Assembly (NCBI GenBank): GCA_034520565.1
Contig: JAXHNL010000002.1
Coordinates: 512,001-576,000, forward strand
Origin: Halodesulfurarchaeum sp.
GTDB lineage: Archaea > Halobacteriota > Halobacteria > Halobacteriales > Halobacteriaceae
Direction of reading: 5' to 3'
Length of the DNA stretch: 64,000 nucleotides
The position numbers were made by a program, and so were the translations under genes. The stretch's first letter is position 1, and every line of letters begins with the position of its first letter. Shown here piece after piece: positions 3,805 through 24,421 of this stretch. The notes below the pieces were generated by a model. That model was not told the origin of the DNA. It saw nothing but the letters and a program-made list of their open reading frames with translations, and searched no databases.

Positions 3805-4770
3805 TCACTCCGGGGGTTCGGGTGGGGCCCCGTCCTCGGTCGCGGGCGCGAAAGCGTCGATGAATTCCTCGACGTCGGGCTCGTGAACGGTCACCGCGAC
3901 TTCGATGGCCCCCAGCTCGTCGGGGGTCCCCACGGAGAAGTTGATTACGTCCTCCAGTGCCGCCTGCTTTTTCAGTTCGAACGAGAAGCCCCGGGGCCCG
4001 GCCCGCTCGAAGAAGACGTCCCGGGCGGTGTCGAGGATCCGCTGCTCGAAGAGCCGCTGCCGGAAGTGCCCGAGGTCGTGAGTCGTGGCCACCACTCGAT
4101 CGTCTCGGGTTTCGACCTCGCTCTCGGGGAAGAGGGTCGTAATCGCCTCGAGGACCCGCTTGGCTACCTCGGTCTCCTTCACCGGCGCTTCGACCGTCGC
4201 CTCGATCCGGCGAACGGGACCCTCGATCGTGTCTCCCAGGAGGTCGCTCACCGCCTCGCGGTAGGCCGCAAGGGAGGACGCGTTCTCGATTTCCACGTCG
4301 GCGTCGGCCATCGCCTCGCGGAGTCCGAACCCGAGTTCGCGCTCGTCGCGGTCGGCGAGGGTCTCCCCACCCGCCTCGGCCCCGGAGTCACGATTGCGCA
4401 CCGCGAGCCGCTCGGCCCGCAGGTCGTCGGGCGCGGTGATCGCGACGAGCGTGAACTCCTTGCCGAAGGCGTCCTCGAAGCGCTCGACCTCGACCCCGGA
4501 GCGGATCCCGTCGATCACCACCGCGTCGGAATCGCTTCGGGCCTCCCGGATCGCTGGCAGGGCGCGGTCGGCGATGGCCGCGAGCCCCTCCTCCTCGCGG
4601 AGGGCCTGGGCCACCCGCCCGTGGTCGGCGGCGGGGTCGAGGCCGCGTTCTTCGGTCTCCTGGCGGACGATGTCCCCCATCGTGACGACGGGGAGGCCGA
4701 GTTCGCGGGCCACCGTCGCGGCTTCGCTCTTGCCGCTGCCGGGAAGGCCGACGATGCCGATGACAGTCAT
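3805..4770 (-). CDS. Fusion of UPF0200 P-loop kinase (CoaE-like) and UPF0201/DUF54 putative RNA-binding domain
   Basis: N-terminal GLPGSGKS, MGDIVR, IDGIRS, DRDERELGFG; C-terminal APVKETE...QRILDTAR...LKKQAA...ELGAIEV. Confidence 0.8.
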   Translation of the reverse strand: MTVIGIVGLPGSGKSEAATVARELGLPVVTMGDIVRQETEERGLDPAADHGRVAQALREEEGLAAIADRALPAIREARSDSDAVVIDGIRSGVEVERFEDAFGKEFTLVAITAPDDLRAERLAVRNRDSGAEAGGETLADRDERELGFGLREAMADADVEIENASSLAAYREAVSDLLGDTIEGPVRRIEATVEAPVKETEVAKRVLEAITTLFPESEVETRDDRVVATTHDLGHFRQRLFEQRILDTARDVFFERAGPRGFSFELKKQAALEDVINFSVGTPDELGAIEVAVTVHEPDVEEFIDAFAPATEDGAPPEPPE

Positions 4771-4871
4771 TGGGTGGCCCTATCGGCCGTGCGGTCTTTT
4801 CGGTTCCGTTCTCGGGTCGCCTCGGCGTCGGGTGTAACACATAAGACGGCGGGAGCCAAATTCCCGGCCGA

Positions 4872-4976
4872 GGGCACGTAGCTCAGTCCGGACAGAGCGT
4901 CGGACTTCTATCCCGCACAGTGTTGCTGTGGGGGGAAGACATCCGACGGTCGCGGGTTCGAATCCCGTCGTGCCCG
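4872..4976 (+). tRNA. tRNA-Arg(TCT) with 30-nt intron (4911-4940) at the canonical 37/38 position
   Basis: GGGCACG/CGTGCCC acceptor stem, TAGCTCAGTCCGGACAGAGC D-arm, TCGGA/TCCGA anticodon stem, anticodon TCT at 4907-4909, GGTTCGAATCC T-arm; CTTC/GAAG central helix of a bulge-helix-bulge splice motif. Confidence 0.93.
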
Positions 4977-4977
4977 T
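4955..4977 (+). repeat. attL core (tRNA-Arg 3' end)
   Basis: Exact repeat at 14003-14025. Confidence 0.9.
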
Positions 4978-5249
4978 GAGTTTCCTTTCGGTTTCCGACC
5001 CGTACAGAGAACGGACGGAGAGACGCCCAAACAACCGGATTTGGGCAGTTCTCAAGAATCACTAAGCCCCCTCGATCTGGAGTTCGTTCAGCAACTTTGT
5101 GGCCCCCTTCGCCCTCACTCGGTTTTCAGATTCGTCGAAAGGGCAAACCTCGGTCTTCATTCTGCCACACTCGGCCAGCCACCCACCCACCTCGCCCGGA
5201 CCAAAGCGGGGCCCACCTGGCCCCCGACGGTCCGCGGCGTTGTTCCTCG

Positions 5250-5452
5250 AGCTTTCACAGCCGACGAAAGCGAGGGAGAGGGAGATCGCGCACGCCCGGC
5301 AGCGCAGCGACCGTTGGGAGCGAGCAGCCCGGAACGGTCCGCGGGCGCCAACCGCGGACCGCACGGGATCGACCGGCCGGAAGCGGGCCCCCTCCCACGG
5401 GGGCCCGACCCGGAAGCCCGAGCGCATCCCCCGAGCCCGAAGGGCGAGGGGG
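5250..5452. promoter_or_regulatory. Hairpin cluster upstream of rep; probable rolling-circle origin region (dso/sso)
   Basis: Perfect stems CGGTCCGCGG/CCGCGGACCG (5335-5361) and CGGGCCCCC/GGGGGCCCG (5384-5407), plus CCCCC-GA-GCCC-GAA-GGGC-GA-GGGGG (5428-5452). Confidence 0.55.
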
Positions 5453-5494
5453 TTCCCGTCTGGCTGTGCGGTTTGCGGTGCGGTGGTGGTCGGT

Positions 5495-6844
5495 ATGCGT
5501 GAAGCAAACCGATCAGTCGAATCAGCCTCCGCATCGGAAAGCGCAAAACTAGATCAGTTCGCCTCTCGGCCTACCAAGACTAACTGTACAACCCCAGAAT
5601 CACGCTCTCTCCCGGCCGGTGAGAGCAGTTGGGAAGGATACTGGTGGAAACAGAAAAACGCACTCGTCGATCAGTTCGTCGAGGAGTATCCCAATCGGGC
5701 AGCCCGGCCAATTTCGGTTAGGGGCGGAGAACTTCTCCGCGAGGAGTGCACGCTCTCTCGACCGGAGGGAGAAGGACCCGTCTCAAAGTCGTGGTCGTCC
5801 GTTATGAACGAATACCTCAAGTGGTACAACGGATATCGAGATTCCCATCTGGTTTTTCGAGACCCCGACGGAAACCGAGTTCGTACCCAAATGGAAAACG
5901 CGCACATGCCCGAGTACGGCGACAAGTATTATGCCAAGTTGAAAGCCCTAGAGCGGCAGATCGCCTCCGAATACGATGATCTTCACATCGCGATGCTCAC
6001 CTTCACTGGCTCGACGAAGAACGGAAACGGCGGCTGGCGGGCTGTGTCAGACCACCTCCGGGACGTGATCGACAGTTGGCGGCCAGATCGCGGTCGAGGC
6101 GTCTATCACGCCCTTCGCGATTCACTCGAATGCCAAGAATGGGAATACGCCCTTGTCGTCGAGAAACACCAGAGTGGCTACGGGCACGTGCATTGTGCCG
6201 TGTTCGTCGACGGGGAGGTCGATGAGTCGGATTTTCATCCCGCTATTGATGCCCACCTTCGAACCTGCAACATCGCCCATCGGGATGCTCACAACTACTT
6301 TGCAGAGGATGAAACAACACGGCCCATTTCGGTGAGTAGTGTCGATACGGATCTCGATCCAAACCGGGGCGACGTGGACAAGATCACGAACGTTGGCACC
6401 TATATCGGCGAGTACATCGGCTCATACGGAGAACCATTGTTTGATCGGAGCATCGAAGAGCTAGCGTTTCGGGCAGCAGTATGGGCGACTGGGACCCAGC
6501 TCGTTCGGTTCAGTACGGGTGCAAATGAACTCATTCGGGAAGAACTTGACCGGGAACAAACCGAGTTAAAAGTGCCCGAGCTGGTCCAAAAACCTGAGTT
6601 CGATCCAGAAGCCGAAGATCCAGGAGAGACGGTTGAAGGTTCGCCTTTTGACGTGGTGAATAAAGGATGGTCACTCGAAGGCGTTGGAAGAGTGGATTCA
6701 GAGGGGGAGACAATATACGACGTTCAAAATAGTGGAGTGCAGTTTGTCGAAATAGCGGATTCTTCTCATCTAGATCCAATTAATTCTCAACCCCCGGATA
6801 GGCCACAACCGAGGGCTAAAGTTAGAGATTTAGAGAGCTTCTAA
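5495..6844 (+). CDS. rep: Rolling-circle replication initiator (HUH endonuclease), haloarchaeal plasmid/pleolipovirus type
   Basis: Motif 1 MLTFTG, motif 2 GYGHVHCAVF (HUH), motif 3 YIGEYIG; start placed at ATG 5495 within ORF 5099..6844. Confidence 0.85.
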   Translation: MREANRSVESASASESAKLDQFASRPTKTNCTTPESRSLPAGESSWEGYWWKQKNALVDQFVEEYPNRAARPISVRGGELLREECTLSRPEGEGPVSKSWSSVMNEYLKWYNGYRDSHLVFRDPDGNRVRTQMENAHMPEYGDKYYAKLKALERQIASEYDDLHIAMLTFTGSTKNGNGGWRAVSDHLRDVIDSWRPDRGRGVYHALRDSLECQEWEYALVVEKHQSGYGHVHCAVFVDGEVDESDFHPAIDAHLRTCNIAHRDAHNYFAEDETTRPISVSSVDTDLDPNRGDVDKITNVGTYIGEYIGSYGEPLFDRSIEELAFRAAVWATGTQLVRFSTGANELIREELDREQTELKVPELVQKPEFDPEAEDPGETVEGSPFDVVNKGWSLEGVGRVDSEGETIYDVQNSGVQFVEIADSSHLDPINSQPPDRPQPRAKVRDLESF

Positions 6845-7088
6845 CCAACCAGAATTTGTGAGATGTGTCGGATTATTAATTGCTAATTTTCAATAGTCGT
6901 CAAACTTGCAATGATTTATTTTCTTCATAGGGGTTTGGTTAAATTATTAAAATTCAACGAGACTACTACAGAGCATCAGATGCCATTATGAGATTTATTT
7001 TTCTACATGACAAGGCGATATAAACGTATCAATTTTTCCGGGAAAACCCTATTTAATTGTCCTAATAGAGTGTAGACAGGGTAAGAAG

Positions 7089-7439
7089 ATGAGTGTGCCA
7101 AAGAGGAAGACAAAAAAATCCAATTCTATTTTTAAAGAGAGTGTAGAAAAGGAACACGAATGGTTGGAAAGTTTGGGAGTGGAAGAACTATCAGACATTC
7201 TTCAGAGCCATGCGGGTGAGCTCTCCCTTCGGTTTGCATCTGAACTGAATGGTTACTATGTTGTGGCAAATGAGGATAACGAAGGTTTGCAAGTGATTTA
7301 TTCCGGTTTAAGTGGGCCGGAACACAAACCAGTGAAATTGTCGAAAGCTAATTTGCGGAGACTTCAATCAAAATCAGAGTTGATCAGATTCGTCCCATAT
7401 GAAGAGTCTCCATTTGATTCATTTGTAATTAAAAAATAA
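7089..7439 (+). CDS. Hypothetical protein (116 aa)
   Basis: AT-rich ORF with upstream TATA-like sequence; no recognisable motif. Confidence 0.55.
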   Translation: MSVPKRKTKKSNSIFKESVEKEHEWLESLGVEELSDILQSHAGELSLRFASELNGYYVVANEDNEGLQVIYSGLSGPEHKPVKLSKANLRRLQSKSELIRFVPYEESPFDSFVIKK

Positions 7440-7470
7440 TTGGCGCGCTATACCTCTTTAGGAGGGAGTT

Positions 7471-7832
7471 CTACCAGAATTCCCAAGTGGGTTGGCTAAT
7501 TGCGAGGGTCCGGTCAGCCAGGGTTTCCTCGATGAGACTGCGAATCTCACTTGTGGAAAGAGACTTGGCCTTCTTTTCCAAGTGCGGAGCGTGATGCCGC
7601 ACTATTCGAATAAGGTTCTCTCGAGAACCTCCCATAACCTCCAATTCGCCGTTAATCACCACAGAGGGAATTCGGTTAGGAACTTTTTCCCCCTGGATTC
7701 TCCCATTGGAAGTCATCTCTTTCGCATTTTGACGGACGTGTCCATCGCTGTAACCGGTTCCATCTGCGATATCGGCCACGCGCGAGCGTCCGTTTTTGAA
7801 AGGTGGGCTTGAATAGCATCTTTGACGGTCAT
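7471..7832 (-). pseudogene. Winged-HTH protein with -1 frameshift in an A5 run (real or sequencing error)
   Basis: SD GGAGGTGA (7839-7846) then ATG 7832 reads MTVKDAIQAHLSK; adding one A at 7793-7797 continues NGRSRVADIADGTGYSDGHVRQNAKEM (HTH). Confidence 0.6.
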
Positions 7833-8163
7833 TTGTTATCACCTCCATTGACGACCGTTTCTCTGCTCACAGCAGCAAGTTTCAAGTATTGGACCTCCGA
7901 AGGGAGATTTGTATCCCCAATAGATCCCATTGCCGTTGAGGCAGAGAGGCAAAACTGCAAGCCTTTCTCCTGGACCGAGAATGGCTGAGGCCGATGCGGT
8001 CGTGAGTGGTGATTTTCATCGCGTGTTATCACCTAGCGCCTAGTAAATGGTGCCCCCACTTAAGGGTTCCCCGTGGTAACGTTACTGTGTGAATGTATGA
8101 TACAGTGAATTAGTAATTATACTATAGAAAAAGATATCCGCATTTGGTGCTATACTTTTAGTT

Positions 8164-8931
8164 ATGCCTTACCAAGTGCCCGACCGCGTTCACCTAATGC
8201 CGGTGGGGTTCGAGGAAGACAGAATATTCAAAGTTGCAGAAGATCTGAAGGCTGATAAAGTCGTATTAATAGCAAATAGGGGTGATTCGGATGACGCTCG
8301 CAAACACCTAGAGAAGGCAAAGCAAAAATTGATCGATATGGGTTATGATCCATTGGTAAAAGAGTGTGATATCTTTGATTTATATGAATCATTGGGCCTT
8401 ATTGCGAATATAATTGCCCAGTTTTCTGATGATGAAGTATACGTAAATGTCTCAACGGGTAGTAAGGTAACCGCGATTGCAGGGATGATTGCAGCTATGA
8501 TGACCGGAGCAAATGCCTACTATGCACGAGCTAAAGAATATAGATCGGATGACGTACCCCGTGGAATAGATACCATTTTCCAGCTGCCAAATTATCCTAT
8601 TGAATCCCCTGAGAAAAAGCATGTGTTAGTCCTAAAATACTTAGAAAAAAATGGAGAAATAGATGTTACTAAAAGTGATCTGATTGACTTTGCGGAAAAT
8701 AGTGGCCTCAAGTTCATTTCAGATAAAGATGTGAGTAGAAAGGCGAAGTACCGGCTCTTAGACAACCATATCATTTCCCCACTACTTAATCGGGGGTATA
8801 TTCGGATAGAGGAAAAGGGACGTAACCGACTAGTTAGTATTTCAAATGACGGGAGGGATTTTGTAGAGGCCTTTGGTTTCATGTCAAAAACATACGAGGA
8901 AAATGAGAAGAGCGCTATAACTGCTAGATAG
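8164..8931 (+). CDS. CARF-like Rossmann domain + wHTH regulator (DUF6293/Csa3-like)
   Basis: VHLMPVGFEEDRI...ADKVVLI...VYVNVSTGSKVTAIAGM (CARF motifs) and C-terminal wHTH (KAKYRLLDNHIISPLLNRGYIRIEEKGRNRLVSIS). Confidence 0.8.
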   Translation: MPYQVPDRVHLMPVGFEEDRIFKVAEDLKADKVVLIANRGDSDDARKHLEKAKQKLIDMGYDPLVKECDIFDLYESLGLIANIIAQFSDDEVYVNVSTGSKVTAIAGMIAAMMTGANAYYARAKEYRSDDVPRGIDTIFQLPNYPIESPEKKHVLVLKYLEKNGEIDVTKSDLIDFAENSGLKFISDKDVSRKAKYRLLDNHIISPLLNRGYIRIEEKGRNRLVSISNDGRDFVEAFGFMSKTYEENEKSAITAR

Positions 8932-9093
8932 ATGAAAAGCGCATTATGGGATGGTTTTGAGTTTTTCTGAGAACCCTACTCCAAAAGGTTATTGTTCAAT
9001 ATTATGTAAAAGAATTTGATTTGGGTAAATGAAGTATGATCTGATGGGAGGCTGGACCGTTCGACCATTAACATTATGCAGTTTGGTTAGGAC

Positions 9094-12023
9094 ATGTATT
9101 CCATGGCTTCACCCTCCCCCGAAGCACGTTTTCATTCCAAGTTATTTGATAAATTAGACGACTATATTTATGAAAATGATACACCGTTCCATAATGTAAG
9201 CATTGAAGACCGTATGGAAGACGGGGGGCGAGCAGACATATTTGTTGAATCGAATCTAACAGAAAGTTTTGTTATAGAGGTCAAAAGGGACGATAAAAAT
9301 CCATTAAAGAAGGAGTTCATTACTCAAGCTAGAGATTACGCTAAAAGTAAGCAAGTTAGGTTCTTTGCCATTTGCAATTCAAATGATTATTTTTTATTTG
9401 ATTATCGGGGCGAGGTTAATGTAACCGATATTGATTTCCACTACCTAGATCTTCGCCAAGGGAATATCCGAGATCAAACGTTTGGTGGCCTGATCCCGAA
9501 GATGCTTCAAGCGGTACAATACCTTTCGAAGCATGACCAGCTTCCCAAGCAAAAGACACGCAAACAAATTGTTGGCGTAATTCGGTCATTCCATACCTCA
9601 ATTTGGCCCACCTACAAAGAATTGGCTAGGGAAGCATTTGGAAGAAACGCAGAATTCACCGAATACTTTGAAAATTGGGTAGCGGAAAACAACTATAGTC
9701 AAAGAGACAAGGATGAACAATTCGAAATTGCGGCTAAACAACATGCCTACCTCTTAGGTAATAAAATTCTATTCTATGACCTTATAAGGGACCGTACTCC
9801 AAGTGATATTCAAACAAAAAGTGGCTATAAACTAAATTCGCTTTACCAAACATCTTCCGGCAAAAATATAGATATTGAAGGTATAAAACCCAGAATTGAA
9901 CAGCAATTCAATCGTATTATAGAGGAGATTGATTACGAACCTGTTTTTAACGATTCTGATACTATATTTAGTTCCTTCCCTGAAAACCGAAAGACTCAGA
10001 GAGCTATCCAGACTCTTTTATCGAACTTTGAATCGAAACGCCTAGAAGAAGTGAACGAAGATCTCCTGGGTGAACTTTACCAAGAATTGATTCCTAAAGA
10101 TGAACGCCGGAATTTGGGGCAATTTTATACTCCGCCGTCAATTGCAGAAGCCCTAGTGAGATGGGCTATTGATTCATCGGATCAAGATGAGTTGCCTCGC
10201 ATTTTAGATCCAGCATCTGGGAGCGGGACATTTCCGGTTGAGGTATATGAGTATTTGCATCAGATATTTCCAGAAGCAAATCACCAAGAATTGATAGACT
10301 CGATATTTGCAGTTGACATTAACAAATTCCCCATTCATCTTACTTCCTTTAATCTTGCAATCCGAAATATTACCTCTGAGACAGATCAGATCCATACTAA
10401 AAACGGTTCATTCTTTGATGTATCTCCCACAGCAGAGACTCTAAATGCATTCACTAACAGCGGGCAAGAATTCACTGAAAATTTTGATGCAGTGGTGGGA
10501 AATCCGCCTTACATCTTCCATCAAAATTTGTTCCCTGATAAAGAGCATTTCCGCCATCATCTGACAAATTACCAAGACGAAAATGGGGAATCGCCATATT
10601 ATGACGGTGAAAAGAAATTTGATACCTATACTGACGCATATATTTACTTTGTGACTCACGCATTTCAATTTCTCAAAGAGGGGGAAAACTAGCATTCATA
10701 ATCTCTGCGAAGTGGTTAGATGTTGAATATGGATTCCCATTTCAGCAATTTTTGTTCGATAACGCCAAAATACAGTCAATTATTACATTTAACTCCCGTT
10801 CGTTCGAAGATGCATTAGTAAATACATCACTACTTTTAATTGAGAAGTGTTCAGATGCATCAGAGAGAAGAGAGACAGTAACCGACTTTATTCGCATTAA
10901 GAAGCAAACCCCTCCAAAGGACCTAGTAAGTACAATTGAACATGAGCGTACAATTCCTGAAGGAAAACCATACAAATTTGAATCACGTAGCGGATATCGT
11001 GTTTTTTCGCGTTCTCAAAGTGAACTAGAAAAAGAGGGACCACGGAAATTGGGATATTATCATTCTGCGCCCCGTCCCATTATTGACTTAATTGACAGTG
11101 GTTTATTCAAACCAATGAGTGACCTGCCATTCTCCCGTGTTCGTCGGGGTTACATGACTGGTGCTAATTCCTTCTTTATTTTAGATGAGGACGATGTCGC
11201 ACAATGGGGAATTGATCATAGATTTTTGAAGCCAGCAATCAAGAGTGTGAAAAATCTCCATGAGCTTAGAACTCCAGAGGATGGAATTGGTCTATATATT
11301 CTTGATCTTCGTGAATTTATAGAAGATACTCGCCATATCTGGAAAAATAGTGACAAAGATGAGTCGTTTGAAAATGCTGTGAAAGAGCGATTAAAGGAAG
11401 AAGGATACGAGAATACATATCAGTATATCAGATACGGTGAATCAGATGGGATTGATGAGATGTACAATCCTAGTCGGCGAAAGGTATGGTTCCAGCTTCC
11501 TGATTTGGTTGCTCCAGACGTACTCCACCCAGTTTTCTATAATGAAGATCTTTATACAATTAAGAACGACGGCGGATTAGTCCCATCGAATGCGATATTA
11601 TGTGTATGGTTTGAGGAATATCAAGACGTGATGAGAGGGATAATGAATTCAACATTATACAAAGTCATTCTAGAGGTTTGGGGCCGAAAGGAGGGAGGTG
11701 GGGCTCTTCAATTTCTTCCTGATGAGATAAAGTCAATTCCTATCCCAGACCCACGGTCGCTTGATGAAACAGCAAAAGAAACCGTAATTAAAAACGCTGA
11801 AAAACTTGAGTTTGATAGCGATGTTGGCCAAGATGATCTGGACAAGGCCATTCTTGATGGATACGATATACCCATTTCAGTTGACGATCTTCAACAGATG
11901 CAATCGCTAATGACAAAACAGAGGGTCGAAGGAGCAGAGGATACAACAATTCTTGTTCAGGATTTGGAGGAATTCGATGAATATGATCTCGAAGGGTTCA
12001 TAAAAAAGCAAAATGGGGGCTGA
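9094..12023 (+). CDS. Type IIG-like restriction-modification enzyme (PD-(D/E)xK nuclease + N6-adenine MTase + TRD), split by a -1 frameshift at ~10684
   Basis: RADIF...IEVK nuclease, LGQFYTP, ILDPASGSGTF (motif I), VVGNPPY (motif IV); GAG GGG GAA AAC TAG plus one G gives EGGKLAFIISAKWLDVEYG, which runs into ORF 10752..12023; ~976 aa if repaired. Confidence 0.85.
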
Positions 12024-12109
12024 GGGAACATTGTCAGTATCGTATGACTGACTTGGACATAATGTTGGCCTCAATCAGATTCTGCAATCCATGACTTTAC
12101 ATTCATTTT

Positions 12110-12532
12110 TTATTCCCATTCCATTTTTTCAGCCTCGTCAGCACTCGGGACTTTGAATTGATACCAATTCTCGGAGCGATCTCGAATTGGGTTATCCGCT
12201 ATTTCATTGGAGACCTTCTCAATCATTCTTGCTTTTCCTTCATCTGTGAGTTGGTAATAGCCCCGTTCCACTTTTTTAACGATACCCCCGGCTTCGAGTG
12301 TGTTTAGTCTCCGAGAAACAGCTCCCCTCGACCGGTCTATGTTTTTTGCGATCACTGATGGGCCTAACATTAAATCAGGTGATGCGAGCAAATCGACGAT
12401 TTCATAATCTAATTCCGTGAGCCAATCCGGAGGGTGGAGATCTTCGTCATAAAACTTGTCATCATCTATGTCAGCCCGGTATTTGTCCGGAATGACGTTT
12501 TCTGGGGGTTCGTATTCATTGTCCTCGGCCAT
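12110..12532 (-). CDS. Winged-HTH repressor (phiH1-repressor-like), divergent from the integrase
   Basis: WLTELDYEIVDLL...PSVIAKNIDRSRGAVSRRLNTLEAGGIVKKVERGYYQLTDEG. Confidence 0.8.
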   Translation of the reverse strand: MAEDNEYEPPENVIPDKYRADIDDDKFYDEDLHPPDWLTELDYEIVDLLASPDLMLGPSVIAKNIDRSRGAVSRRLNTLEAGGIVKKVERGYYQLTDEGKARMIEKVSNEIADNPIRDRSENWYQFKVPSADEAEKMEWE

Positions 12533-12793
12533 GAGTCCAGAAAAACTACCCATTACAAAAAAGGTACCGCATATATTGCATTACAAATAGTACGGTTACA
12601 AATTCATGATAAAGAATAAGTGACCCCCTGTTTAACCATTATTCGTCACGGCCCACTCGGAGCGTGACCCCGTCCAAAGAGACACGCCCCGAATCTCGCC
12701 GTGGCATCCAAGGTGGATGCATGCCCAAATACACACTTCAACACTGTAAGACTGCTGAAGGCGCGTACAGAATCAGAGCAGGTGCTATCCTCG

Positions 12794-13843
12794 ATGGGTG
12801 ACTTAGAACCCATCCCGCCTGCTGAGGCGGTCCAAATGTTTCACGAGGCTATGATCGACGAGCACGCGGAGTCCACTCGTCGAAGCGAAAAACATCGACT
12901 CAAAGCCTTCGTACAATTCTGCGATGAACACGGCATCGAGGACCTGACCGAATTAACGGGACGAGACCTCTATCTCTACCGGAGCTGGCGGAGAGAGGGC
13001 CAGGGCGATGACCGGGAACCGATAAAAACAGTCACGCTGAAAAGTCAGTTAGCGTCACTCCGTCGGTTCCTCCGCTTTGCTGCTGATATTGATGCTGTTC
13101 AAGCAACGCTCTATGAACAGGTTTCGCTGCCAGTCATGCGAAACGGTGAGGACGTCTCGGAATCAACTTTAGAGGCAGATCGGGCTCTCGAAATCCTGGA
13201 CTATCTCGAGCACGCACAACCCGCTTCGCGTGACCACATTATCGTTTTGCTCCTCTGGAAAACCGGGGCCAGAACCGGCGCAATTCGTGGGCTCGATCTC
13301 CGGGACTTGGATCTCGAAGGAACTCACCCACGCGTGTCCGGGCCGGCAATTCACTTCGTCCACAGACCCGATACGGGAACCCCGCTTAAGAACCAAGACA
13401 AGGGTACGCGGTGGAATCGAATCAGCGGGGTGACGGCCCGGTACATCTCTGATTACATCGAATACAACCGGCCCAACGTCACCGACGAACACGGGCGAGA
13501 ACCCCTCATAGCCACTCAGTACGGACGGCCGGCCGGGAATACACTCCGCACCACCCTGTATCGAGTGACCCGGCCCTGCTGGCGAAACGAACCGTGCCCC
13601 CACGATCGGGATACTGAGACTTGTGAGGCCACCCATTTGGATCACGCCAGCAAGTGCCCCTCCGCTCGATCACCCCACGATCTCCGAAGTGGGAGAGTGA
13701 CCTACTATCGTCGAGAAGACGTCCCCCGCCGAGTCGTCAAAGATCGGCTCAATGCCAGCGAAGACATTCTAGATCGGCATTATGACCGGCGTTCGGACCG
13801 AGAACAGGCAGATCAGCGAAGCGACTACCTCCCAGACCTATAA
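12794..13843 (+). CDS. int: Tyrosine integrase, SNJ2/pleolipovirus-like family
   Basis: TGARTGAIRGLD, HRPDTGTPLKN, Cys/His insert RPC...CPH...C...KCPS, SPHDLRSG, ILDRHYD; ends ~50 bp before the att copy. Confidence 0.92.
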   Translation: MGDLEPIPPAEAVQMFHEAMIDEHAESTRRSEKHRLKAFVQFCDEHGIEDLTELTGRDLYLYRSWRREGQGDDREPIKTVTLKSQLASLRRFLRFAADIDAVQATLYEQVSLPVMRNGEDVSESTLEADRALEILDYLEHAQPASRDHIIVLLLWKTGARTGAIRGLDLRDLDLEGTHPRVSGPAIHFVHRPDTGTPLKNQDKGTRWNRISGVTARYISDYIEYNRPNVTDEHGREPLIATQYGRPAGNTLRTTLYRVTRPCWRNEPCPHDRDTETCEATHLDHASKCPSARSPHDLRSGRVTYYRREDVPRRVVKDRLNASEDILDRHYDRRSDREQADQRSDYLPDL

Positions 13844-13891
13844 TAATGCCATGTGCCAACACTTGCAGGCCTAATTCCGAGATAGCGGGAC

Positions 13892-14025
13892 CCCGTCGTG
13901 CCCGTACAGCGAGGAGCGGAGCGACGAGCGAACCGGCGCGCATGGGATTTGAGCCCTGGAAGGCGCGCGCAACGAACGGAGTGAGTGAGCACGGCTTCCT
14001 CTGGTTCGAATCCCGTCGTGCCCGT
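13892..14025 (+). repeat. Right-end module 1: 14-bp att copy + hairpin element + 23-bp att copy
   Basis: CCCGTCGTGCCCGT at 13892 and 14012; GGGATTTGAGCC...GGTTCGAATCCC stem between them. Confidence 0.85.
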
Positions 14026-14267
14026 TCGGAGACAATCGTTTTCGACCATTCACAGAAAACCGTGAGAGCCAAGAAGACGGGTATTCTGGCCGTTCTCAAA
14101 GAACGTTTAGCCAACGGAATTTGGTGTCCATTCAGCATCTGAACGTCCCCTCATAAACAAATGGCCCATCATGCAGGGAGAACGAATCTGTTATTATAAC
14201 TAGGTTATACTCTATCCATAAAATTAGAAAAAGTGTTATCGGCAATACCTCTGAGAATATTTATAGT

Positions 14268-15632
14268 ATGGACAAATCGTTGCTCGCCACCTCATCAAAA
14301 ACTGTTCGAGAATCCGCTAAAGAGCTTGGTAAAATAGTAGAAACTGAGGAGTTGTATCTGCCACAAAATTCGCCAGTTTTCTATTTTTTGGATAGGTTTG
14401 GGTCGGGCTCTGTTAATGAATTTATTGAGAAATGGCCAAATTCGGAGTTTGAACCTATGGGGATGGCAATTGAAACTCCCGAAATCATTACATATTTGAT
14501 TAAAATTCATAGAAATCATGGAGCTTTCAATGGGAAACAGAAGAGGATAATTCAAGATATGATTGACAAAGTAATCCAAAATCAAAACGTCCACGGGCAG
14601 ATGTCAAATTACCATTCTAAACAGCTTAGAGCACTAATTTTATTCGATCCAAAATCTGAACCAGCAATAAATGGAGTGAGTCATTTGACATCAGAGGTTA
14701 TTCCCAATACAGCCTATACAAACAGATCACGTAGAATCCAAGAGTTAGCAAACGGAATTATTTCTCTTTGCGAATTAGATTATTACACATATGAGAATGA
14801 GATTGAGGAGGCAGCGTCACAAATTCGAGATTTAATTGATGACGGGCCTAAAAATGATGATCTTGAGAATATATATGACCCAAGCAATCTTGCAATAGCC
14901 CTTTCCAAACTCCAAAATTATAGGTTCGAATTTGAACAAAAATTGTCGGAAGTACTTATGAGAGAATTATCAAATAGAGATGACTTAAAAATTGGTTTGG
15001 ATGATATTGATGGACTATTTAGTCCCTACATAATCATTGGGAAGTCTTTAGTTGGCCTCTTGGCCCTTGGAAAAGGACCCAAAGCCCCGATTTATCAAAA
15101 TGATTGGGAAAAAGAACTCGAAAGGCAACGATTGGCCCGTTCTAAGGCCTCATTTGTTTCCACTCTCCCCGCGAGCGAGTTACAGTCACGTCGAATAGAG
15201 ATATATGAGAAGGCCTATTCTATCATTAATTCAGTTCAAAGCGAGTTGCGAATTTCCACACTAATGATGGATATGTTTTACAATGAAATTCTCGACCTTA
15301 TTGAGCAAGATTCTGATGTTCAAGTTCGCATACTTGCCAGACGAGAAGGACCAAAAGGGGAACGAAGGAGGATGAAAGAAGCCGTGATGAAGGAACTAGT
15401 TAAAGCAGGTGAATCGGAAATCGTTCGAGGAGACCATTTACTCCATAGTCGGATGATTATTGGTGATGACTCTGAACTGCTCGTTTCATCTGCAGATTTG
15501 ACACGAGATCGGCTATACGATGAATTTAATGCAGGGATCTATACTCGTGACCCAGACGCGGTAAATGAAGCTATTGAGTATTTTGACAATATTTGGAATC
15601 AAGGCAAATCGCTCGATGTGGAAAAGTATTAG
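14268..15632 (+). CDS. Protein with helical N-terminal region and C-terminal PLD-like (HKD-variant) domain
   Basis: ELRIST...VQVRILAR...LHSRMIIGDDSELLVSSADLT...EFNAGIYTRDPDAVNEAIEYFDNIW. Confidence 0.75.
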   Translation: MDKSLLATSSKTVRESAKELGKIVETEELYLPQNSPVFYFLDRFGSGSVNEFIEKWPNSEFEPMGMAIETPEIITYLIKIHRNHGAFNGKQKRIIQDMIDKVIQNQNVHGQMSNYHSKQLRALILFDPKSEPAINGVSHLTSEVIPNTAYTNRSRRIQELANGIISLCELDYYTYENEIEEAASQIRDLIDDGPKNDDLENIYDPSNLAIALSKLQNYRFEFEQKLSEVLMRELSNRDDLKIGLDDIDGLFSPYIIIGKSLVGLLALGKGPKAPIYQNDWEKELERQRLARSKASFVSTLPASELQSRRIEIYEKAYSIINSVQSELRISTLMMDMFYNEILDLIEQDSDVQVRILARREGPKGERRRMKEAVMKELVKAGESEIVRGDHLLHSRMIIGDDSELLVSSADLTRDRLYDEFNAGIYTRDPDAVNEAIEYFDNIWNQGKSLDVEKY

Positions 15633-16018
15633 ACTCTGTTGAAAATTTTTTTGATCAGTGGTATTTTGAGAACGGTCTCCTGAATACACCGCTCGTATTC
15701 ACCAATCGCATTCTCGGGAATCCCCCGGCACATCTTAATTTTTGTAGCATGGTCTTGTTGGCCAGGAAGCGGTCCAGAAAGTCTTGGGAAGGGAGTATTA
15801 GTTGATTCGGACTGAGCCCCCGCACTTTTGCTGTGCTATTTGAGAAGGTGAGGACGATACTAGTAGACAAGTGTTGCTCTCTTCGTGAAGTTTCTTACAG
15901 TGAAATGTGTCATGTCCGCCTGAGGGAGGTCAGTTAAATCATGGTAATGGGGCACATACCATTATGTCGAAAAGACATCCCTAAAGATGTCATCAACATT
16001 TAACATACGTTTGATAAT

Positions 16019-17578
16019 TTATTGTCGAATTATCTCATTCTGTAATGACCCGGGACTATTTCCAGTAATTCTATTTCTCATCTCAACTGCCTGGGACTCA
16101 GTCATATTAGATATCAAATCGGCTACAATCCTTGCCCGTAAGGTACAATCTTCGCTATCTATATTCTTAATTCGCTCCCGGTACGGTTCCATAATTAATG
16201 AGGTGTCTACAGATTCTGGGTCCGCTTCGTTGTACAATTCTTCGAATAGCACGTTAATAATTTCCTTTTGACCGGCTTGCTGAGCCGAAAGGGTAGGATT
16301 GCTTATCACGTAATAGAAGGTCAATTCCTTCAAAATTTCAATCTCTTTCATTAATTCTTCATCAACGTCCAACGTGGGCAACCCATCAACTGAATGGCCA
16401 ATTACACCAACATTACGTTCCGAAGGTTCCCGCTCCGTTGCTTCAATGTACCATCCTATTAAGGAGGATATTAACTTATTGAGCTGATTCCTTTCCCTTT
16501 GAGTACCCTCATATGGAGTAAATAGCGAGTCCCCAATAAATGCGAAATCTGTTAGCTTTATTAGAAAATCCAATACTTCAGGAAGAGTTGCTTCAACACC
16601 TGATTTATCAGAAACATATTCTGCAAAATCAAATACTTCCATATTATGTGATTTAGAGTGCTCCACAATTAGTCGATCATAATCCGGTAATTCATCAATT
16701 CCAGCCTCATCTGGTAGTTGTTTGAATAGCTCTTTTGCTTCCCGAAGCAGTTGATCAAGCGGAAGAAGACCACTTCTATAGAAATCCTCCACGTCGTGTA
16801 TCGCATAGGTCAAATCATCCGCAAAGTCCATGACTTCTGCTTCAATAACTTTATTGCGTCCACCGTCTGTCCCTGCCCTTGCAAAGTTAAAGTGGCTATT
16901 TTCGGAAGGGTAGTACCCCCATTTGTCATCAGTATCTTTGTCAGAAGCGATGTCTTCAGCATCTCGCTTCCACGGGTATTTTAGCATAGCATTTAAAGTA
17001 GCCCTAGTCAAATCCATCCCACATATACCGGGGCGATGCGTTCCCAGTTTAGTCACGGCCCGGAATGATTGGGCATTACCCTCAAATCCCTGGATGTTAT
17101 TATTCTCAATATCATCTGAATCTTCCTGGCCAGCTTGTTCTTTTGATTTTTGTCGGATTTTCAAATCTAGTAAGTTCTCAGTCTCGTGGCCAAACGGGGG
17201 ATGGCCAATATCATGGGCCAAGCAAGCAGCTTCCACTACATCTTCATTCAGATATTGCCCAAGGTTCTCAAATTCGCCACCATAATAATCTATTAATAAC
17301 TCAGCCAATCTACGGCCAACTTGGGCGACTTTCAAGGAGTGTGTGAGTCGGTCATGGTAAAGGTAGGATTCTCCAGTCCTAGCAACTTGTGTGACGTCTT
17401 TCAACCGCCTGAACTCACGGCTGTAGAGGATTCGGTCGCGATCTCGTTCAAAGGGAGTTCGCTGGTCACTAGGGTCAATGTTAATTGCTGCATCAGCTTC
17501 TAATTGTGAATCGTACTCTTCCTCCAAATTTTGGTCTAGTGCTGAAGGACGGCGCTCTCGAGGAAAATTTGAAGGCAT
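16019..17578 (-). CDS. dgt: dGTP triphosphohydrolase (dGTPase, HD superfamily)
   Basis: RTPFERDRDRILYSREFRRLKDVTQV, HDRLTHSLKVAQVGR, AHDIGHPPFGH, FEGNAQSFR, KYPW, ADDLTYAIHDVED, RIVADLISNMTE. Confidence 0.92.
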   Translation of the reverse strand: MPSNFPRERRPSALDQNLEEEYDSQLEADAAINIDPSDQRTPFERDRDRILYSREFRRLKDVTQVARTGESYLYHDRLTHSLKVAQVGRRLAELLIDYYGGEFENLGQYLNEDVVEAACLAHDIGHPPFGHETENLLDLKIRQKSKEQAGQEDSDDIENNNIQGFEGNAQSFRAVTKLGTHRPGICGMDLTRATLNAMLKYPWKRDAEDIASDKDTDDKWGYYPSENSHFNFARAGTDGGRNKVIEAEVMDFADDLTYAIHDVEDFYRSGLLPLDQLLREAKELFKQLPDEAGIDELPDYDRLIVEHSKSHNMEVFDFAEYVSDKSGVEATLPEVLDFLIKLTDFAFIGDSLFTPYEGTQRERNQLNKLISSLIGWYIEATEREPSERNVGVIGHSVDGLPTLDVDEELMKEIEILKELTFYYVISNPTLSAQQAGQKEIINVLFEELYNEADPESVDTSLIMEPYRERIKNIDSEDCTLRARIVADLISNMTESQAVEMRNRITGNSPGSLQNEIIRQ

Positions 17579-17589
17579 TCCGAAAATGC

Positions 17590-17817
17590 CTAAGCTGAGA
17601 CCGATGCGTGGCTTGCCAATTTATACTCAAAGCCAGGGCTGGTTCCAATTTGGCCTTCATCAATCAGTTCTTGCAGAATATCTTTTACATCTTCCCTTCC
17701 TTCAGCGGATGTATTTTTCATCAAATGGTCTAGGGTCACTGGGCCATCACTTTCTATCAAGGCTTCAAATATTTCCGTCCGGAGAGAGTCTTCGCTTCCG
17801 CCACTATTTCGAATCAT
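17590..17817 (-). CDS. Small winged-helix protein (75 aa), 11 nt upstream of the dGTPase
   Basis: LRTEIFEALIESDGPVTLDHL...EDVKDILQELIDEGQIGTSPGFEYKL fits a wHTH pattern. Confidence 0.7.
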   Translation of the reverse strand: MIRNSGGSEDSLRTEIFEALIESDGPVTLDHLMKNTSAEGREDVKDILQELIDEGQIGTSPGFEYKLASHASVSA

Positions 17818-18082
17818 ACCTTGAGGATAGATTGGGTTCTACTTAGTTCTGATGTCAAATGGGGTACTTTGAATGCCAAATAATGGTACTAATCTAGACC
17901 GGATTATAGCCACGATTGCACCCAATTAACGAGACGTAATCATGAGGTTTTAAGTCGGTATATATGGTCTCCAAAATACATCACAAAGGAACCCCCCCCC
18001 AAGAGATTCAAAATCGGGAGATGTATGAAAATATCACCAAGCCACCTTACAAAATTGTAGGGTTGTGTCTATCTGGGCGAAA

Positions 18083-18350
18083 TTATAGCCAGAGGATCTT
18101 CTCAGCTTCGCGACTTTCCACCCCTTCCCCGTGTTTCCCAAAGTAGAGCCGGTGAAGAGTCGGGTAACCCTCTCACCCGCTCCATTGCATCACTACGCTC
18201 GGTAGAACGCCGGCCTCAAGAGTGAGGTTTCCCTAGGTCCGGTGGGGATCGTGCGGCCCGAGGTACCGCCAGCCTCGATAGGGTCCTGCTTCTCAAGTTC
18301 CTCCGCAACGGTGGCAACCCATCGGCGAATCGTCCTCGTCGTGTCGTCAA
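18083..18350 (-). pseudogene. C-terminal remnant of a XerC-like haloarchaeal tyrosine recombinase
   Basis: Across frames: TTRTIRRWVATVAEELE / RGWRYLGPHDPHRT*GNLTLEAGVLPSVVMQWSG*EGYPTLHRLYFG / REAEKILWL*; stop codons where Trp is expected. Confidence 0.7.
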
Positions 18351-18453
18351 AGACCGGCACAATGCCAGCGAAAACATTCTTGACCGGCATTATGAACGGC
18401 GTTCGGACCGCGAACAGGCTGATCAGCGGAGCGACTACCTCCCAGACCTACAA
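18335..18453 (+). pseudogene. 3' remnant of an SNJ2-like integrase
   Basis: PRRVVKDRHNASENILDRHYERRSDREQADQRSDYLPDL, nearly identical to the C-terminus of the integrase at 12794-13843. Confidence 0.9.
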
Positions 18454-18503
18454 CAATGACATGTGCCAACACTTGCAGCGCAAATTCCGAGATAGCTGAA
18501 CCC

Positions 18504-18622
18504 CCCATCGTGCCCGCTTCTGCGACGAACGGAGGTGAGGAGCGAAGCGGCGCATGGGATTTGAGCCCTGGAAGAGGAGCGAGCGCAGCGAGCGAGTCTT
18601 CCTTCGGTTCGAATCCCTTCGT
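18504..18622 (+). repeat. Right-end module 2: degenerate att + hairpin element + partial att
   Basis: CCCATCGTGCCCG (18504-18516), CGCATGGGATTTGAGCCCTGGAAG, GGTTCGAATCCCTTCGT (18606-18622). Confidence 0.8.
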
Positions 18623-18823
18623 AGGCGATTTTAGGTGGCAATATTACTTTTAAAGGCCATACAATAGAGATGGGATGATTATATAGGGCAAGTTTTGGGC
18701 AGCTTGATATCAATCATACTCCGGTATTTCCAAAATATTGGGTTGGCGATTTTTTAATAATCTAATCTAAAAATATAAATTTTGCAAAAGAAACATTATG
18801 GCGGAGAAAGATAGGCCAGATAA

Positions 18824-19690
18824 ATGAAGCGAACGATAAGATTTGCTCGGCTTTCATTTGAAAGAAAGTTAAGTCACTATGAAAGCGACGAAAACCCCAT
18901 AGAACGGCGAAAGAAGGCGTTATTAGATGTGATTGATTTTGATTTGGATGTCAACCGCCTTCTTCTTGAGACCGATCTAAAAATGATACGGGATAGAGGA
19001 GATTGGTATTTTGGTGATGTGGAAACAGAAGAGTCCGTAATTTCAGGATGGATAGGTAAAGAAAAAGAAGAGATAGAGAAGCACGTTGATGAAGATAAAA
19101 AAGGATTCAAAGAGACGGAAGAAAGCAAGGCAGATGTGGCATTTTTCGTAATTGACGTAGCCAATTCTGTAATGGCCTATGAGTTTAGATCAAATGTTGG
19201 AGAAAAAGCACCATACCGAATTCTGGAAGGTGTATTTAATGTCTACCACAAAGGTGAAGAAGAACTCTCTATCTCTCCAATAGTTGATAAAGAGGAAGTC
19301 CGATCAGAGCTTGATAGGATTTCTAGAGTAACTCAGGTGAAGTTCCAAGGTCTAAAGCCAACAAATCCAGATCGAACTGATTTATCAAAGCCAATGGATG
19401 AGTTTCTACAAGAAGGAGGCATTGACCGCTTATTTTTCAATGGCAAAAGTGATGATTCGACAAGAGGAATAAATTTGGAGGTGCCACTTTTGAATGGGGG
19501 TCTTAGCTTAGCCGAAGAAGGATATGGTAGTGCTACGATTAGTGGGAAGATGAAATCAGGAGAAGACATAGTCGTTACAACGGATGAAAAACAAATAGAG
19601 TCAGAAGTTGATGAGGCGAAAACCGACAGAATGTATAGAAAAAGACTAATAAATGAAATCGGAGAAACACTGGAGGATCTCGAAAATTGA
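18824..19690 (+). CDS. Soluble hypothetical protein, possibly DUF4747-like; candidate defence component
   Basis: 288 aa; ISPIVDKEEVRSELDRISRVTQVKFQGLKPTNPD and SLAEEGYGSATISGK patterns; TGATG-coupled to the downstream TM gene. Family call tentative. Confidence 0.7.
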   Translation: MKRTIRFARLSFERKLSHYESDENPIERRKKALLDVIDFDLDVNRLLLETDLKMIRDRGDWYFGDVETEESVISGWIGKEKEEIEKHVDEDKKGFKETEESKADVAFFVIDVANSVMAYEFRSNVGEKAPYRILEGVFNVYHKGEEELSISPIVDKEEVRSELDRISRVTQVKFQGLKPTNPDRTDLSKPMDEFLQEGGIDRLFFNGKSDDSTRGINLEVPLLNGGLSLAEEGYGSATISGKMKSGEDIVVTTDEKQIESEVDEAKTDRMYRKRLINEIGETLEDLEN

Positions 19691-20274
19691 TGGATAACTC
19701 TAATATGTTTTATCGGTTAAAGGAATTCGGATTTAGAAATATTATCTTGAGTTACGATACCCTTGGAGGGGGTATCTCGTTTTTTATAGTATACATATAT
19801 CTTGATGGGAGCGTGCCTCGGGAAATTGGATCAGACATACTGCCAACTATCGCGGTAGTATCGTCCACGTTGTTTGCCATCGTTCTTACTGGATTTACTA
19901 TAATCACATCTTTTACAGACCGTTACTTCCTTTATGCCTGGAAAGAAGTGGGCGACTTTGATGGAGTTGTTACCCTCTTTCAGTATAATCTCGCCTTGCC
20001 AATAATTGTTATTTTGGCATCTGTATCACTTATAATAAATTATAATGGGGTCGGGATGATGATCTTGATCTCTCTATTCGTATACATGATCTTGTCCTTA
20101 CTTAATTTAGTGGGATTTATTTCCAAGTACTCATTGCAAAGAGCAGAATTCGTTAAACAACAAATGGAGAAATCTGCTAAACAATCACCAAAAAACCAGG
20201 ATGATGATCCAACGTTGTCAACAAAACAGCTTAAAAAAGTCAAAAACTTATTAACTGAATACCCAGATGAATGA
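19690..20274 (+). CDS. Integral membrane protein (~4 TM) with charged C-terminal tail
   Basis: Four hydrophobic stretches; ATG overlaps the upstream stop codon. Confidence 0.75.
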   Translation: MDNSNMFYRLKEFGFRNIILSYDTLGGGISFFIVYIYLDGSVPREIGSDILPTIAVVSSTLFAIVLTGFTIITSFTDRYFLYAWKEVGDFDGVVTLFQYNLALPIIVILASVSLIINYNGVGMMILISLFVYMILSLLNLVGFISKYSLQRAEFVKQQMEKSAKQSPKNQDDDPTLSTKQLKKVKNLLTEYPDE

Positions 20275-20311
20275 TTATTTATATTGAAGATTTGGGATTG
20301 TGACTAAGAAT

Positions 20312-20540
20312 TTAGAGATTTGGAGATTGCCCCACAACCGGCAACCGCACCGTAAACACCGCCCCGCGAGGCGCCACGTCCACCTCGCCCCCGTACCGCT
20401 CGACCAGCGTCTCCACGATGTACAGCCCCAGCCCGGTCCCCTCGCTTTCGGGGTTGCGAACGCCCTCCTCGAAAATGGGCACCTTCTTGCCGTCGGGCAC
20501 GCCCGGCCGTCGAGAAGCACCACCAACACCCACCGACCGC
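20312..20540 (-). pseudogene. Histidine-kinase HATPase_c C-terminal remnant
   Basis: VLVVLLDG/PGVPDGKKVPIFEEG...GTGLGLYIVETLVERYGGEVDV...GAVFTVRLP with a frameshift in DGPG; no upstream HisKA. Confidence 0.7.
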
Positions 20541-20546
20541 CCCCAC

Positions 20547-22742: not shown

Positions 22743-22782
22743 GAAAAGCCCGTCCGGCGACCGGACAGCGTGGTGGTCGGCG

Positions 22783-23490: not shown

Positions 23491-23622
23491 CGTTTTCTAG
23501 CAGTTGTCGGGGGGATGTTGTGAATCCATCGCGTGTCGGAATCCTTCCCCCAAGATCGATGCGAGGACGGTATCGGTCACCTCACCACCGGCAATCGGAC
23601 CCTAAAGCATGCCGCGCCGCGA

Positions 23623-23772: not shown

Positions 23773-23820
23773 GCACAACCGTATGGCTCCCAGAAACTTG
23801 AAGGATGGTACCGAGAGAGG

Positions 23821-24285: not shown

Positions 24286-24421
24286 ATATCCAATTTTGTT
24301 CTGAATAACCGTATATCTACCCATTAGTTCGGGAGAAAGTGTGACATTAACACACGTTAATGCGGAACACTCTTGCACGGGGACCGTCATCGGTTTACCG
24401 GCCGACCCCGGAAGGTTGGAT

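Follow-up and report, generated by a model that had tools for sequence, protein, structure and literature searches.

The island behind tRNA-Arg(UCU)

The stretch of DNA analysed here (the window, 64,000 nucleotides) spans positions 512,001-576,000 of the forward strand of contig JAXHNL010000002.1 in the Halodesulfurarchaeum sp. assembly GCA_034520565.1 (G000:C2:512001-576000 in our coding), a metagenome-derived assembly of 1.86 Mb with 62.5% G+C and 81% completeness. Towards its left end lies a genomic island of three units stacked in tandem behind a gene for tRNA-Arg(UCU). Between the units stands a repeated module, the part of which after the attachment core is a palindromic tRNA trailer element of about 110-120 nt, for which we use the name THE (tRNA-end hairpin element). 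Over the island, from about 5500 to about 20300, the G+C content falls from 65-70% to 37-47% (about 40% for the island). The tRNA gene is missed by ARAGORN with default settings and is recovered with the intron option. The layout is as follows:

4872-4976, forward strand: tRNA-Arg(UCU), the presumed integration target (Rfam RF00005, 60.1 bits, model positions 1-71; ARAGORN -i, anticodon tct, intron of about 30 nt)
4955-4977, forward strand: 23-nt tRNA 3' end, recognised by exact repeats, the last 14 nt of which (4964-4977) are taken as attL of Unit 1
4978-13891, forward strand: body of Unit 1, with exact 14-bp cores on both sides (8,928 bp including one core)
13892-13905, forward strand: attR core of Unit 1, 14 nt, exact (CCCGTCGTGCCCGT search)
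13906-14025, forward strand: THE-1, consisting of the trailer, a hairpin (13945-14012) and a 23-nt copy of the tRNA end (14003-14025) that would double as attL of Unit 2
14026-18503, forward strand: Unit 2, with arms homologous to those of Unit 1
18504-18517, forward strand: attR core of Unit 2, degenerate, 12/14 (CCCGTCGTGCCCGT search)
18518-18622, forward strand: THE-2, consisting of a trailer like that of the tRNA-proximal THE of relatives, a hairpin (18557-18615) and a truncated copy of the tRNA end (18606-18622)
18623-20325, forward strand: Unit 3, a low-G+C remnant with neither integrase nor attachment site

The 14-mer CCCGTCGTGCCCGT is exact at 4964, 13892 and 14012 and agrees in 12 of 14 positions at 18504; allowing up to 2 mismatches it yields 9 matches against 2.0 expected, and 9 was reached in 0 of 100 shuffles. 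A 23-mer extending from the T-loop to the end of the tRNA is exact at 4955-4977 and 14003-14025, the att copy itself forming the 3' arm of the THE-1 hairpin. The module at 13724-14025 recurs at 18334-18622, with 171 nt at 88%, 32 nt at 91% and 36 nt at 81% identity. These cores and repeats, along with the gene content given below, bear out a preliminary description of the region as three tandem units at a tRNA gene with one intact integrase. It had also proposed that decay increases away from the tRNA, and this holds: exact cores and an intact integrase gene in Unit 1 are followed by a 12/14 core and an integrase remnant of about 40 codons in Unit 2, and by neither in Unit 3. Most of the window is present in two runs of one salt-pan metagenome sample; the sample that contains it best is probably its source. 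Contigs of three runs (X1-X3; 2 samples, 1 study) were aligned to 4400-24300 as a check for excision junctions; an X1 contig covers 12560-16737 and bridges Unit 1, THE-1 and Unit 2.

Unit 1: a plasmid-like element with an SNJ2-type integrase

The features of Unit 1 are:

5099-6844, forward strand: replication protein (Rep) with DUF1424, the rolling-circle type of small haloarchaeal plasmids, and an N-terminal extension of about 200 aa (Pfam PF07232, 2.2e-52)
8164-8931, forward strand: CARF-like Rossmann domain followed by a winged helix (HFX_2341_N and DUF6293_C; Pfam 2.1e-34 and 4.6e-29; PADLOC CARF3, 1.5e-81)
9094-12023, forward strand: type IIG (Eco57I/MmeI-like, N6-methyltransferase) restriction-modification (RM) gene in two open reading frames (ORFs), 9094-10692 and 10752-12023, with a frameshift near 10680-10750
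12110-12553, reverse strand: winged helix-turn-helix (wHTH) regulator akin to the wHTH beside the integrase of provirus Halfgib1 (pHK2 ORF11-like; Pfam HTH matches; tblastn 3.4e-17 to the Halfgib1 wHTH)
12779-13843, forward strand: SNJ2-type tyrosine integrase (Int), seemingly intact (ORF open from 12701; similarity to SNJ2 Int from 12782)

With the Int of the pleolipovirus SNJ2 the integrase shares 60.3% of its residues (93% of the query, E 2e-130), the range across SNJ2, HHPV4 and Halfgib1 being 56-60%, and the positions of its Arg, HxxR and Tyr motifs align with those of SNJ2-type integrases. As described in the accessible part of PMC5861418, SNJ2 uses a 14-bp core at a tRNA 3' end; Int alone suffices for excision and two small accessory proteins are needed for integration, although their genes (Orf2/Orf3), which lie in an operon with int, are not found in all SNJ2-type systems. 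Unit 1 shares with SNJ2, HHPV4 and Halfgib1 the 14-bp tRNA-end core, the position of int at the end of the element and a core about 50 nt past its stop codon, and with Halfgib1 also the divergent wHTH gene beside int. Its core begins 48 nt past the int stop, a distance that is about 54 nt for SNJ2 and 62 nt for Halfgib1; given this similar spacing, we take 4964-4977 and 13892-13905 as attL and attR of an element of 8,928 bp. Unlike the SNJ2-type viruses, Unit 1 has no match to a virion protein (profile searches matched no virion-protein family among the island proteins scanned), carries a DUF1424 Rep instead, has no detected Orf2/Orf3 and sits at tRNA-Arg(UCU). The Rep is 31-38% identical (tblastn) to those of haloarchaeal plasmids of 1.6-2.5 kb. 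Thus the Rep, the CARF-wHTH protein and the intact integrase seen in the preliminary description are confirmed by Pfam, PADLOC and the SNJ2 alignment, and Unit 1 is seemingly a complete integrative plasmid-like element that restores the tRNA end, and is predicted to be mobile today.

An RM system had likewise been reported for Unit 1. A type IIG gene is indeed present, but it is split: its homologues are single proteins of about 970-980 aa, and in one of 975 aa residues 1-527 align to the ORF at 9094-10692 and residues 551-972 to that at 10752-12023. As assembled, the gene is therefore broken by a frameshift and lacks the single polypeptide of a type IIG enzyme. Applying the 1- and 2-nt deletions of a strain variant from an X2 contig did not repair it, the ORFs staying split. 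In the left arm of Unit 1 we also observed, 21 nt past the core at 4998-5025, a second 'CCCGT + ACAG...' stretch like the start of the THE-1 trailer (its score is reached by 1 of 2000 shuffles), possibly a relic left when flanking DNA was captured.

Unit 2: a decayed relative of Unit 1

Unit 2 contains:

14268-15632, forward strand: PLD-family protein, 454 aa, with a C-terminal PLDc_2 domain (Pfam 2.2e-9)
16019-17578, reverse strand: dGTP triphosphohydrolase (dGTPase; PADLOC dGTPase, 1.4e-89)
18334 (18328)-18450, forward strand: integrase remnant, the last 40 codons or so, followed by the P' arm (tblastn; inside the 171-nt repeat at 88%)

The left (P) arm of Unit 2, after 14025, aligns to the P arm of Unit 1 after the tRNA with a score of 27, which 0 of 2000 shuffles reach, and its P' arm, about 45 nt before the core at 18504, is nearly identical to the sequence preceding attR of Unit 1 (score 64, 0 of 2000 shuffles). 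As both arms are homologous and an integrase remnant of about 40 codons is retained, Unit 2 is a decayed member of the family of Unit 1. The several dead integrases previously ascribed to it reduce to this one remnant, no second one being found in the island by tblastn with three integrases.

The cargo had been read as a PLD protein and a wHTH-dGTPase. Both enzymes are present, but the wHTH is not, profile searches recovering only HD and HD_assoc domains on the dGTPase. The latter scores 265 bits against TIGR01353 (above the cut-off of 152) and 222 bits against the NCBIfam model antiphage_dGTPase (below the cut-off of 400). The PLD protein displays the motif HSRMIIGD, which is of the form HxR and not HxK. 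We considered and rejected the DISARM protein DrmC, to which it has weak matches, on the basis of a score of 35.8 bits against the NCBIfam DrmC cut-off of 133, the HxR motif, the lack of Drm neighbours and the solitary state of the homologues. Among 200 other genomes of the class, 5 have homologues, each an isolated insert of about 40% G+C, and three of these loci (L118, L121 and L122, in G089, G148 and G125) have the gene alone in patches of about 1.5 kb and about 40% G+C between DNA of 60-70% G+C, which look like single-gene islets. A conserved pairing of the two genes was also dismissed: no dGTPase lies within 1.5 kb at any of the 5 PLD loci elsewhere, so PLD and dGTPase form no conserved pair.

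Unit 3: a remnant with a putative RexAB-like pair

Unit 3 encodes two proteins:

18824-19690, forward strand: RexA/DUF4747-like soluble protein, 288 aa (Atlas, Foldseek, VIA)
19687-20274, forward strand: membrane partner, 195 aa, with 3-4 hydrophobic segments, its start overlapping the preceding stop (simple hydropathy scan)

The hydropathy scan agrees with the earlier reading of a soluble protein paired with a transmembrane one. For the soluble protein, the nearest Atlas clusters are DUF4747, DUF6731 and RexA; 13 of its 27 homologues match PF15931 (best 4.7e-7), while the protein itself has no Pfam match at E <= 1. Its structural model (pLDDT 87) has three Foldseek matches at E <= 0.001, all to RdgC or RexA (RdgC 1.1e-4, lambda RexA 2.1e-4) and with TM scores of only 0.24-0.33; with VIA, RexA ranks first at Z 8.3, tied with unrelated folds such as CENP-N at Z 8.1. 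The two genes are also adjacent, in low-G+C patches, in Halovenus salina and Halomontanus rarus (both of the named genomes found), and the Halovenus copy lies about 1 kb from an SNJ2-type integrase. The membrane partner matches no RexB family, and neither protein is matched in PADLOC.

The exclusion systems lambda RexAB, Sbash gp30/31 and CarolAnn gp44/43 consist of a DUF4747-type soluble protein followed by a four-helix membrane protein, as far as the accessible text of PMC6426596 and PMC6426606 describes them. The pair in Unit 3 resembles these, so described, in combining a putative DUF4747-type soluble protein with a small multi-pass membrane protein on a mobile element, and differs in its archaeal host, in that its own soluble protein lies below Pfam significance and in a partner without a RexB match. 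On balance, we regard the pair as somewhat likely to be a RexAB-like module. The cargo of the island as a whole would then be mostly of defence type, as first supposed (dGTPase, PLD-family protein, RexAB-like pair and type IIG RM gene), except that the RM gene is broken.

THE: a hairpin tailored to its tRNA

Each THE has the same layout: a trailer holding an inverted, partly degenerate copy of the 3' end of its own tRNA, an inner stem, a GARCGNAGYGAG loop, and a direct copy that corresponds, usually exactly, to positions 52-73 of the cognate tRNA. In G000 the 5'-arm motif occurs within 320 nt downstream of 16 of the 50 predicted tRNAs, and 4 further tRNAs have exact copies of their 3' ends downstream without this motif. 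A strict pattern search of the same genome recovers 16 distinct hairpins, every one downstream of a tRNA on the same strand; 14 lie 42-389 nt away and the remaining 2 are the island's own, displaced by Units 1 and 2. Examples in G000 are those at C2:71258-71316, 837775-837842 and 1260905-1261098; some copies are in tandem. In all, 16-20 of 49 tRNA genes of G000 have a THE behind them.

Within the family the pattern is present in 38 of 56 genomes, and of 121 genomes sampled across the class 99 have it; a reversed-pattern control gave zero in both sets. At 29 of 30 class loci a tRNA 3' end faces the hairpin, the remaining one being a chance match; the figure of 29 is our own reading of the table, the script having counted 20, with nine more in which the hairpin was matched on the other strand. 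Of 21 aligned hairpins, 20 have an inverted arm that agrees with whichever T-loop variant their tRNA carries, and 4 of 13 predicted inner-stem pairs have changed on both sides. Thus each copy is tailored to its tRNA, with inner stems that covary around the conserved GARCGNAGYGAG loop. Subtypes of THE are shared by different tRNAs, and some copies are identical between species whose flanking genes are about 78% identical, which suggests constraint or conversion and not neutral scars.

Rfam has no non-tRNA family at E <= 1 in the THE regions. A blastn search with 13880-14030 found nothing in 50,697 phage records, and 72,556 plasmid records yielded just two matches, of 30 and 44 nt. In E. coli, the tyrT locus has tandem repeats downstream of the tRNA gene, each with a 3' terminal segment of the tRNA, at a single locus. 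THE differ from the tyrT repeats in lying behind many tRNAs, each with its own tRNA end, and in having in addition an inverted copy and a conserved loop. In the literature searched, including the accessible portion of PMC7002104, we found no description of THE; subscription journals were thinly covered and one may be in print elsewhere. Hence THE seems to be undescribed and may be new.

The locus in relatives

The genes flanking the island are:

3805-4770, reverse strand: left flank gene with an AAA_17 kinase-like and an RNA_binding domain (Pfam)
20330-20510, reverse strand: 3' fragment of a histidine-kinase gene (HATPase_c), about 180 nt, the old right flank of the tRNA/THE array (Pfam; matches the sequence directly after the THE array of G008)
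20547-22742, reverse strand: amino-acid permease-Usp fusion, host-like G+C
22783-23490, reverse strand: Usp protein gene, host-like G+C

Orthologues of the left flank gene are present in 39 of the 41 genomes searched (G000 included) and adjoin tRNA-Arg(UCU) in all 5 fetched loci. As the preliminary description would lead one to expect, the region is no fixed block: none of the 5 relatives with an assembled locus carries any of the units, and their tRNA-Arg(UCU) is followed by one to three THE. There are three in G001, three in G008, where the last abuts the histidine-kinase gene, one in G012, and one in G011, after which the sequence resumes at once at window position 23633. In G010 (L048, C1 16600-18900) a partial THE is followed by an insert of about 2 kb and about 55% G+C with a gene for a Fic/DOC-family protein (3.6e-8) and, at its end, a partial copy of the core. 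The order of THE varies among these relatives.

On the right side the kinase-like gene is reduced in G000 to the 3' fragment of about 180 nt, which abuts the permease-Usp fusion; a longer stretch of it survives in G008. The permease-Usp and Usp genes are not at the locus in relatives, where synteny returns at about 23633. As relatives lack the Usp genes here and G008 keeps the longer kinase-like stretch, the variable region reaches past the low-G+C island to about 23633, and does not end at 20310 as had been supposed. At the far end of the window, a tRNA-Ala called by ARAGORN at 62211-62297 falls below the Rfam gathering score and reads as coding, and was discarded as a probable false positive.

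This variability bears on the reading that Unit 1 alone arrived recently as a discrete element, Units 2 and 3 together with their THE being the remnant of an old island inherited vertically or acquired en bloc, whose division into units would tell little about separate events. Att, int and arm homology are all missing from Unit 3, the DNA as far as 23633 is variable as well and holds genes of host-like G+C, and the PLD homologues elsewhere are lone islets and not parts of elements, all of which would suit it. Yet in Unit 2 both arms, a core and an integrase remnant, all of the family of Unit 1, are still where they should be, and no assembled relative has Unit 2 or Unit 3, so that we hold this reading to be improbable.

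THE are not part of the elements

The hairpin and att copy of the repeated module had been thought to travel with the elements. The evidence speaks against this: 1) THE occur behind many tRNAs where there is no element. 2) No THE lies within 700 nt after any of the 29 other SNJ2-type integrase genes in the family. 3) The left end of Unit 1 has none, despite its homology to the left arm of Unit 2. 4) At the orthologous tRNA-Arg(UCU), relatives have THE but no unit. As THE is not element-specific, the module is a composite of an element's right end (the 3' end of int, the P' arm and the core) and a THE belonging to the host locus; it does recur as first described, but its hairpin and att part is generic and not element-borne.

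A second example of an element followed by a core and a THE comes from G001 (L080, C1:1218690-1222697). There an integrase 41% identical to that of Unit 1 is followed by a 12-nt core and then by a THE, which matches the THE behind tRNA-Arg(UCG) of G000, its own tRNA being outside the fetched stretch. At the latter tRNA, in G000, low-G+C DNA begins after the THE direct copy. These two cases show that the DNA beside both kinds of copy can hold insertions. A second and larger low-G+C region of G000 (C2:30000-72000) starts after the THE behind tRNA-Arg(CCG); it contains an integrase (57921-58796) 43% identical to that of Unit 1, after which no core or THE was found, and an integrase fragment (52245-52613).

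The extent of the direct repeat, from tRNA position 52 to the 3' end, is that expected of a crossover in the T-loop. Hence THE might themselves be footprints or miniature non-autonomous derivatives of T-loop-crossover elements, one being left by each cycle of integration and excision or by mobilisation in trans, in which case the array would record more than 3 events. Their tandem arrays, with 1-3 copies at the orthologous tRNA, the subtypes common to different tRNAs and the THE-1-like 'CCCGT + trailer' fossil in the P arm of Unit 1 (1/2000 shuffles) are in keeping with this idea. On the other hand, we found no complete element bounded by THE-like ends, THE-1 has no relative in the phage collection and only the two short plasmid matches, G000 has only 4 places with tyrosine recombinase similarity against about 20 THE-bearing tRNAs, identical THE persist across species with divergent flanking genes, and simple integration would leave the inverted, tRNA-specific copy unexplained. 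We consider such an origin unlikely.

Origin of the array

We propose that the array is probably a composite island, formed by successive site-specific integrations of elements of one core specificity behind tRNA-Arg(UCU) followed by THE, the older units having decayed. The SNJ2-type Int of Unit 1 would recombine the 14-bp core, identical to the 14 nt that close the tRNA. Since every THE terminates in a direct repeat of tRNA positions 52-73, it offers a second copy of this core. Unit 1 would have entered the tRNA itself, and Unit 2, and probably Unit 3, would have entered a THE copy or been pushed outward by later insertions; the older units would then have lost their mobility genes.

Several observations weigh against this proposal. 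The sequence of THE upstream of position 52 differs from the tRNA, so that a THE copy is only a candidate attB, and an insertion of THE-1 at the tRNA after the arrival of Unit 2 would give the same arrangement. Unit 3 has no integrase, right-side att or arm homology and could be another kind of insertion; its left end is unlike the P arm of Unit 1 (66 of 2000 shuffles reach the score). A tblastn search of 4901-23700 for Orf2/Orf3-like factors, with SNJ2 Orf2, SNJ2 Orf3 and Halfgib1 ORF 095, gave a best E of 1.5. Joints at 4964/13892, 4955/14003 or 4955/18606 are absent from the contigs of the three runs, in which the sole joints are an unrelated 174-nt skip upstream and a chimeric X3 contig; contigs drop rare forms and hence leave mobility undecided. 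The frameshift in the RM gene could be an error of the 81%-complete metagenome assembly. Finally, as single-stranded DNA the local hairpins are no more stable than shuffles (z -1.7 and -0.4; 12/200 and 63/200 fold as well), and folding z-scores for the whole module as DNA are likewise not significant, so the case for a THE structure is made by recurrence and covariation only.

The preliminary description had offered a different model, namely a polarised, integron-like accretion in which the newest unit is always at the tRNA, the module is borne by the elements and the one intact Int might excise units singly or jointly by way of the alternative att copies. The rise of decay with distance from the tRNA agrees with it, as does the trailer after attR of Unit 2, whose likeness to the tRNA-proximal THE of relatives would follow from an earlier position of Unit 2 right at the tRNA; the same directional model is in print for tycheposons. 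Against it stand the occurrence of hairpin and att behind many tRNAs without any element, their absence after 29 of 29 other SNJ2-type int genes and from the left end of Unit 1, the inconstant order of THE between relatives, the failure of the integron analogy discussed below and, as weak evidence, the lack in contigs of junctions for circles of 8,928 bp, 9,048 bp or larger. Taken as a whole we find this model quite unlikely. Its strict polarity, considered separately, is plausible but unproven, as one genome cannot decide whether Unit 2 entered at a THE copy or at the tRNA and was then displaced, first by a later THE and next by Unit 1; units may equally have entered pre-existing att copies.

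Comparison with known systems

The integron analogy draws on the presence of a tyrosine recombinase and of imperfect palindromes between stacked cargo units. It fails because the defining features of integrons are lacking: there is no resident intI and no attI platform, and the units are not promoterless cassettes but carry their own replication and integration genes, with regulators and genes on both strands. The one integrase of the island sits within Unit 1, at the end away from the tRNA, and recombination of a folded single strand, as in integrons, would be conjectural here.

A closer parallel is provided by the tycheposons of Prochlorococcus, for which the accessible text of bioRxiv 10.1101/2020.12.28.424599 describes integration at tRNAs, partial tRNA copies between elements, fragmented integrases and cargo left behind, and a model of directional growth. 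As portrayed there, they share with the island the side-by-side elements, the partial tRNA copies between them and the degenerate integrase in the distal part; they differ in the domain of life, the integrase family and the replication genes, and the partial tRNA copies of the island sit in a palindromic repeat that is also found free of elements. As the integrase and replication genes are unrelated, the likeness is one of analogy and not of membership. Tandem integration has been noted for archaea too (PMC8371274, in the part accessible). Thus integrative elements stacked in tandem at a tRNA, with defence genes as cargo, are of an already known, ordinary kind, to which this locus adds an element with an SNJ2-type integrase but without virion genes and a putative archaeal RexAB-like pair.

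Implications for integration in haloarchaea

What is unusual is that the spacers of this stack are tRNA-specific palindromic repeats, which follow at least a third of the tRNA genes of G000 and occur in most sampled genomes of the class. It is conceivable, though we put it forward only tentatively and consider it doubtful, that THE constitute an undescribed class-wide family that multiplies att sites behind tRNAs, its members serving as landing pads, or as decoys by which the tRNA gene is spared, or else a new miniature tRNA-targeting mobile element. If THE serve as extra att sites, this would explain how elements of the same specificity can stack without destroying each other's ends, and site choice in haloarchaea would be directly testable with the published SNJ2 assay, as outlined in the accessible part of PMC5861418. 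If the class-wide reading is true, THE would shape where integrative elements land and stack in the Halobacteria.

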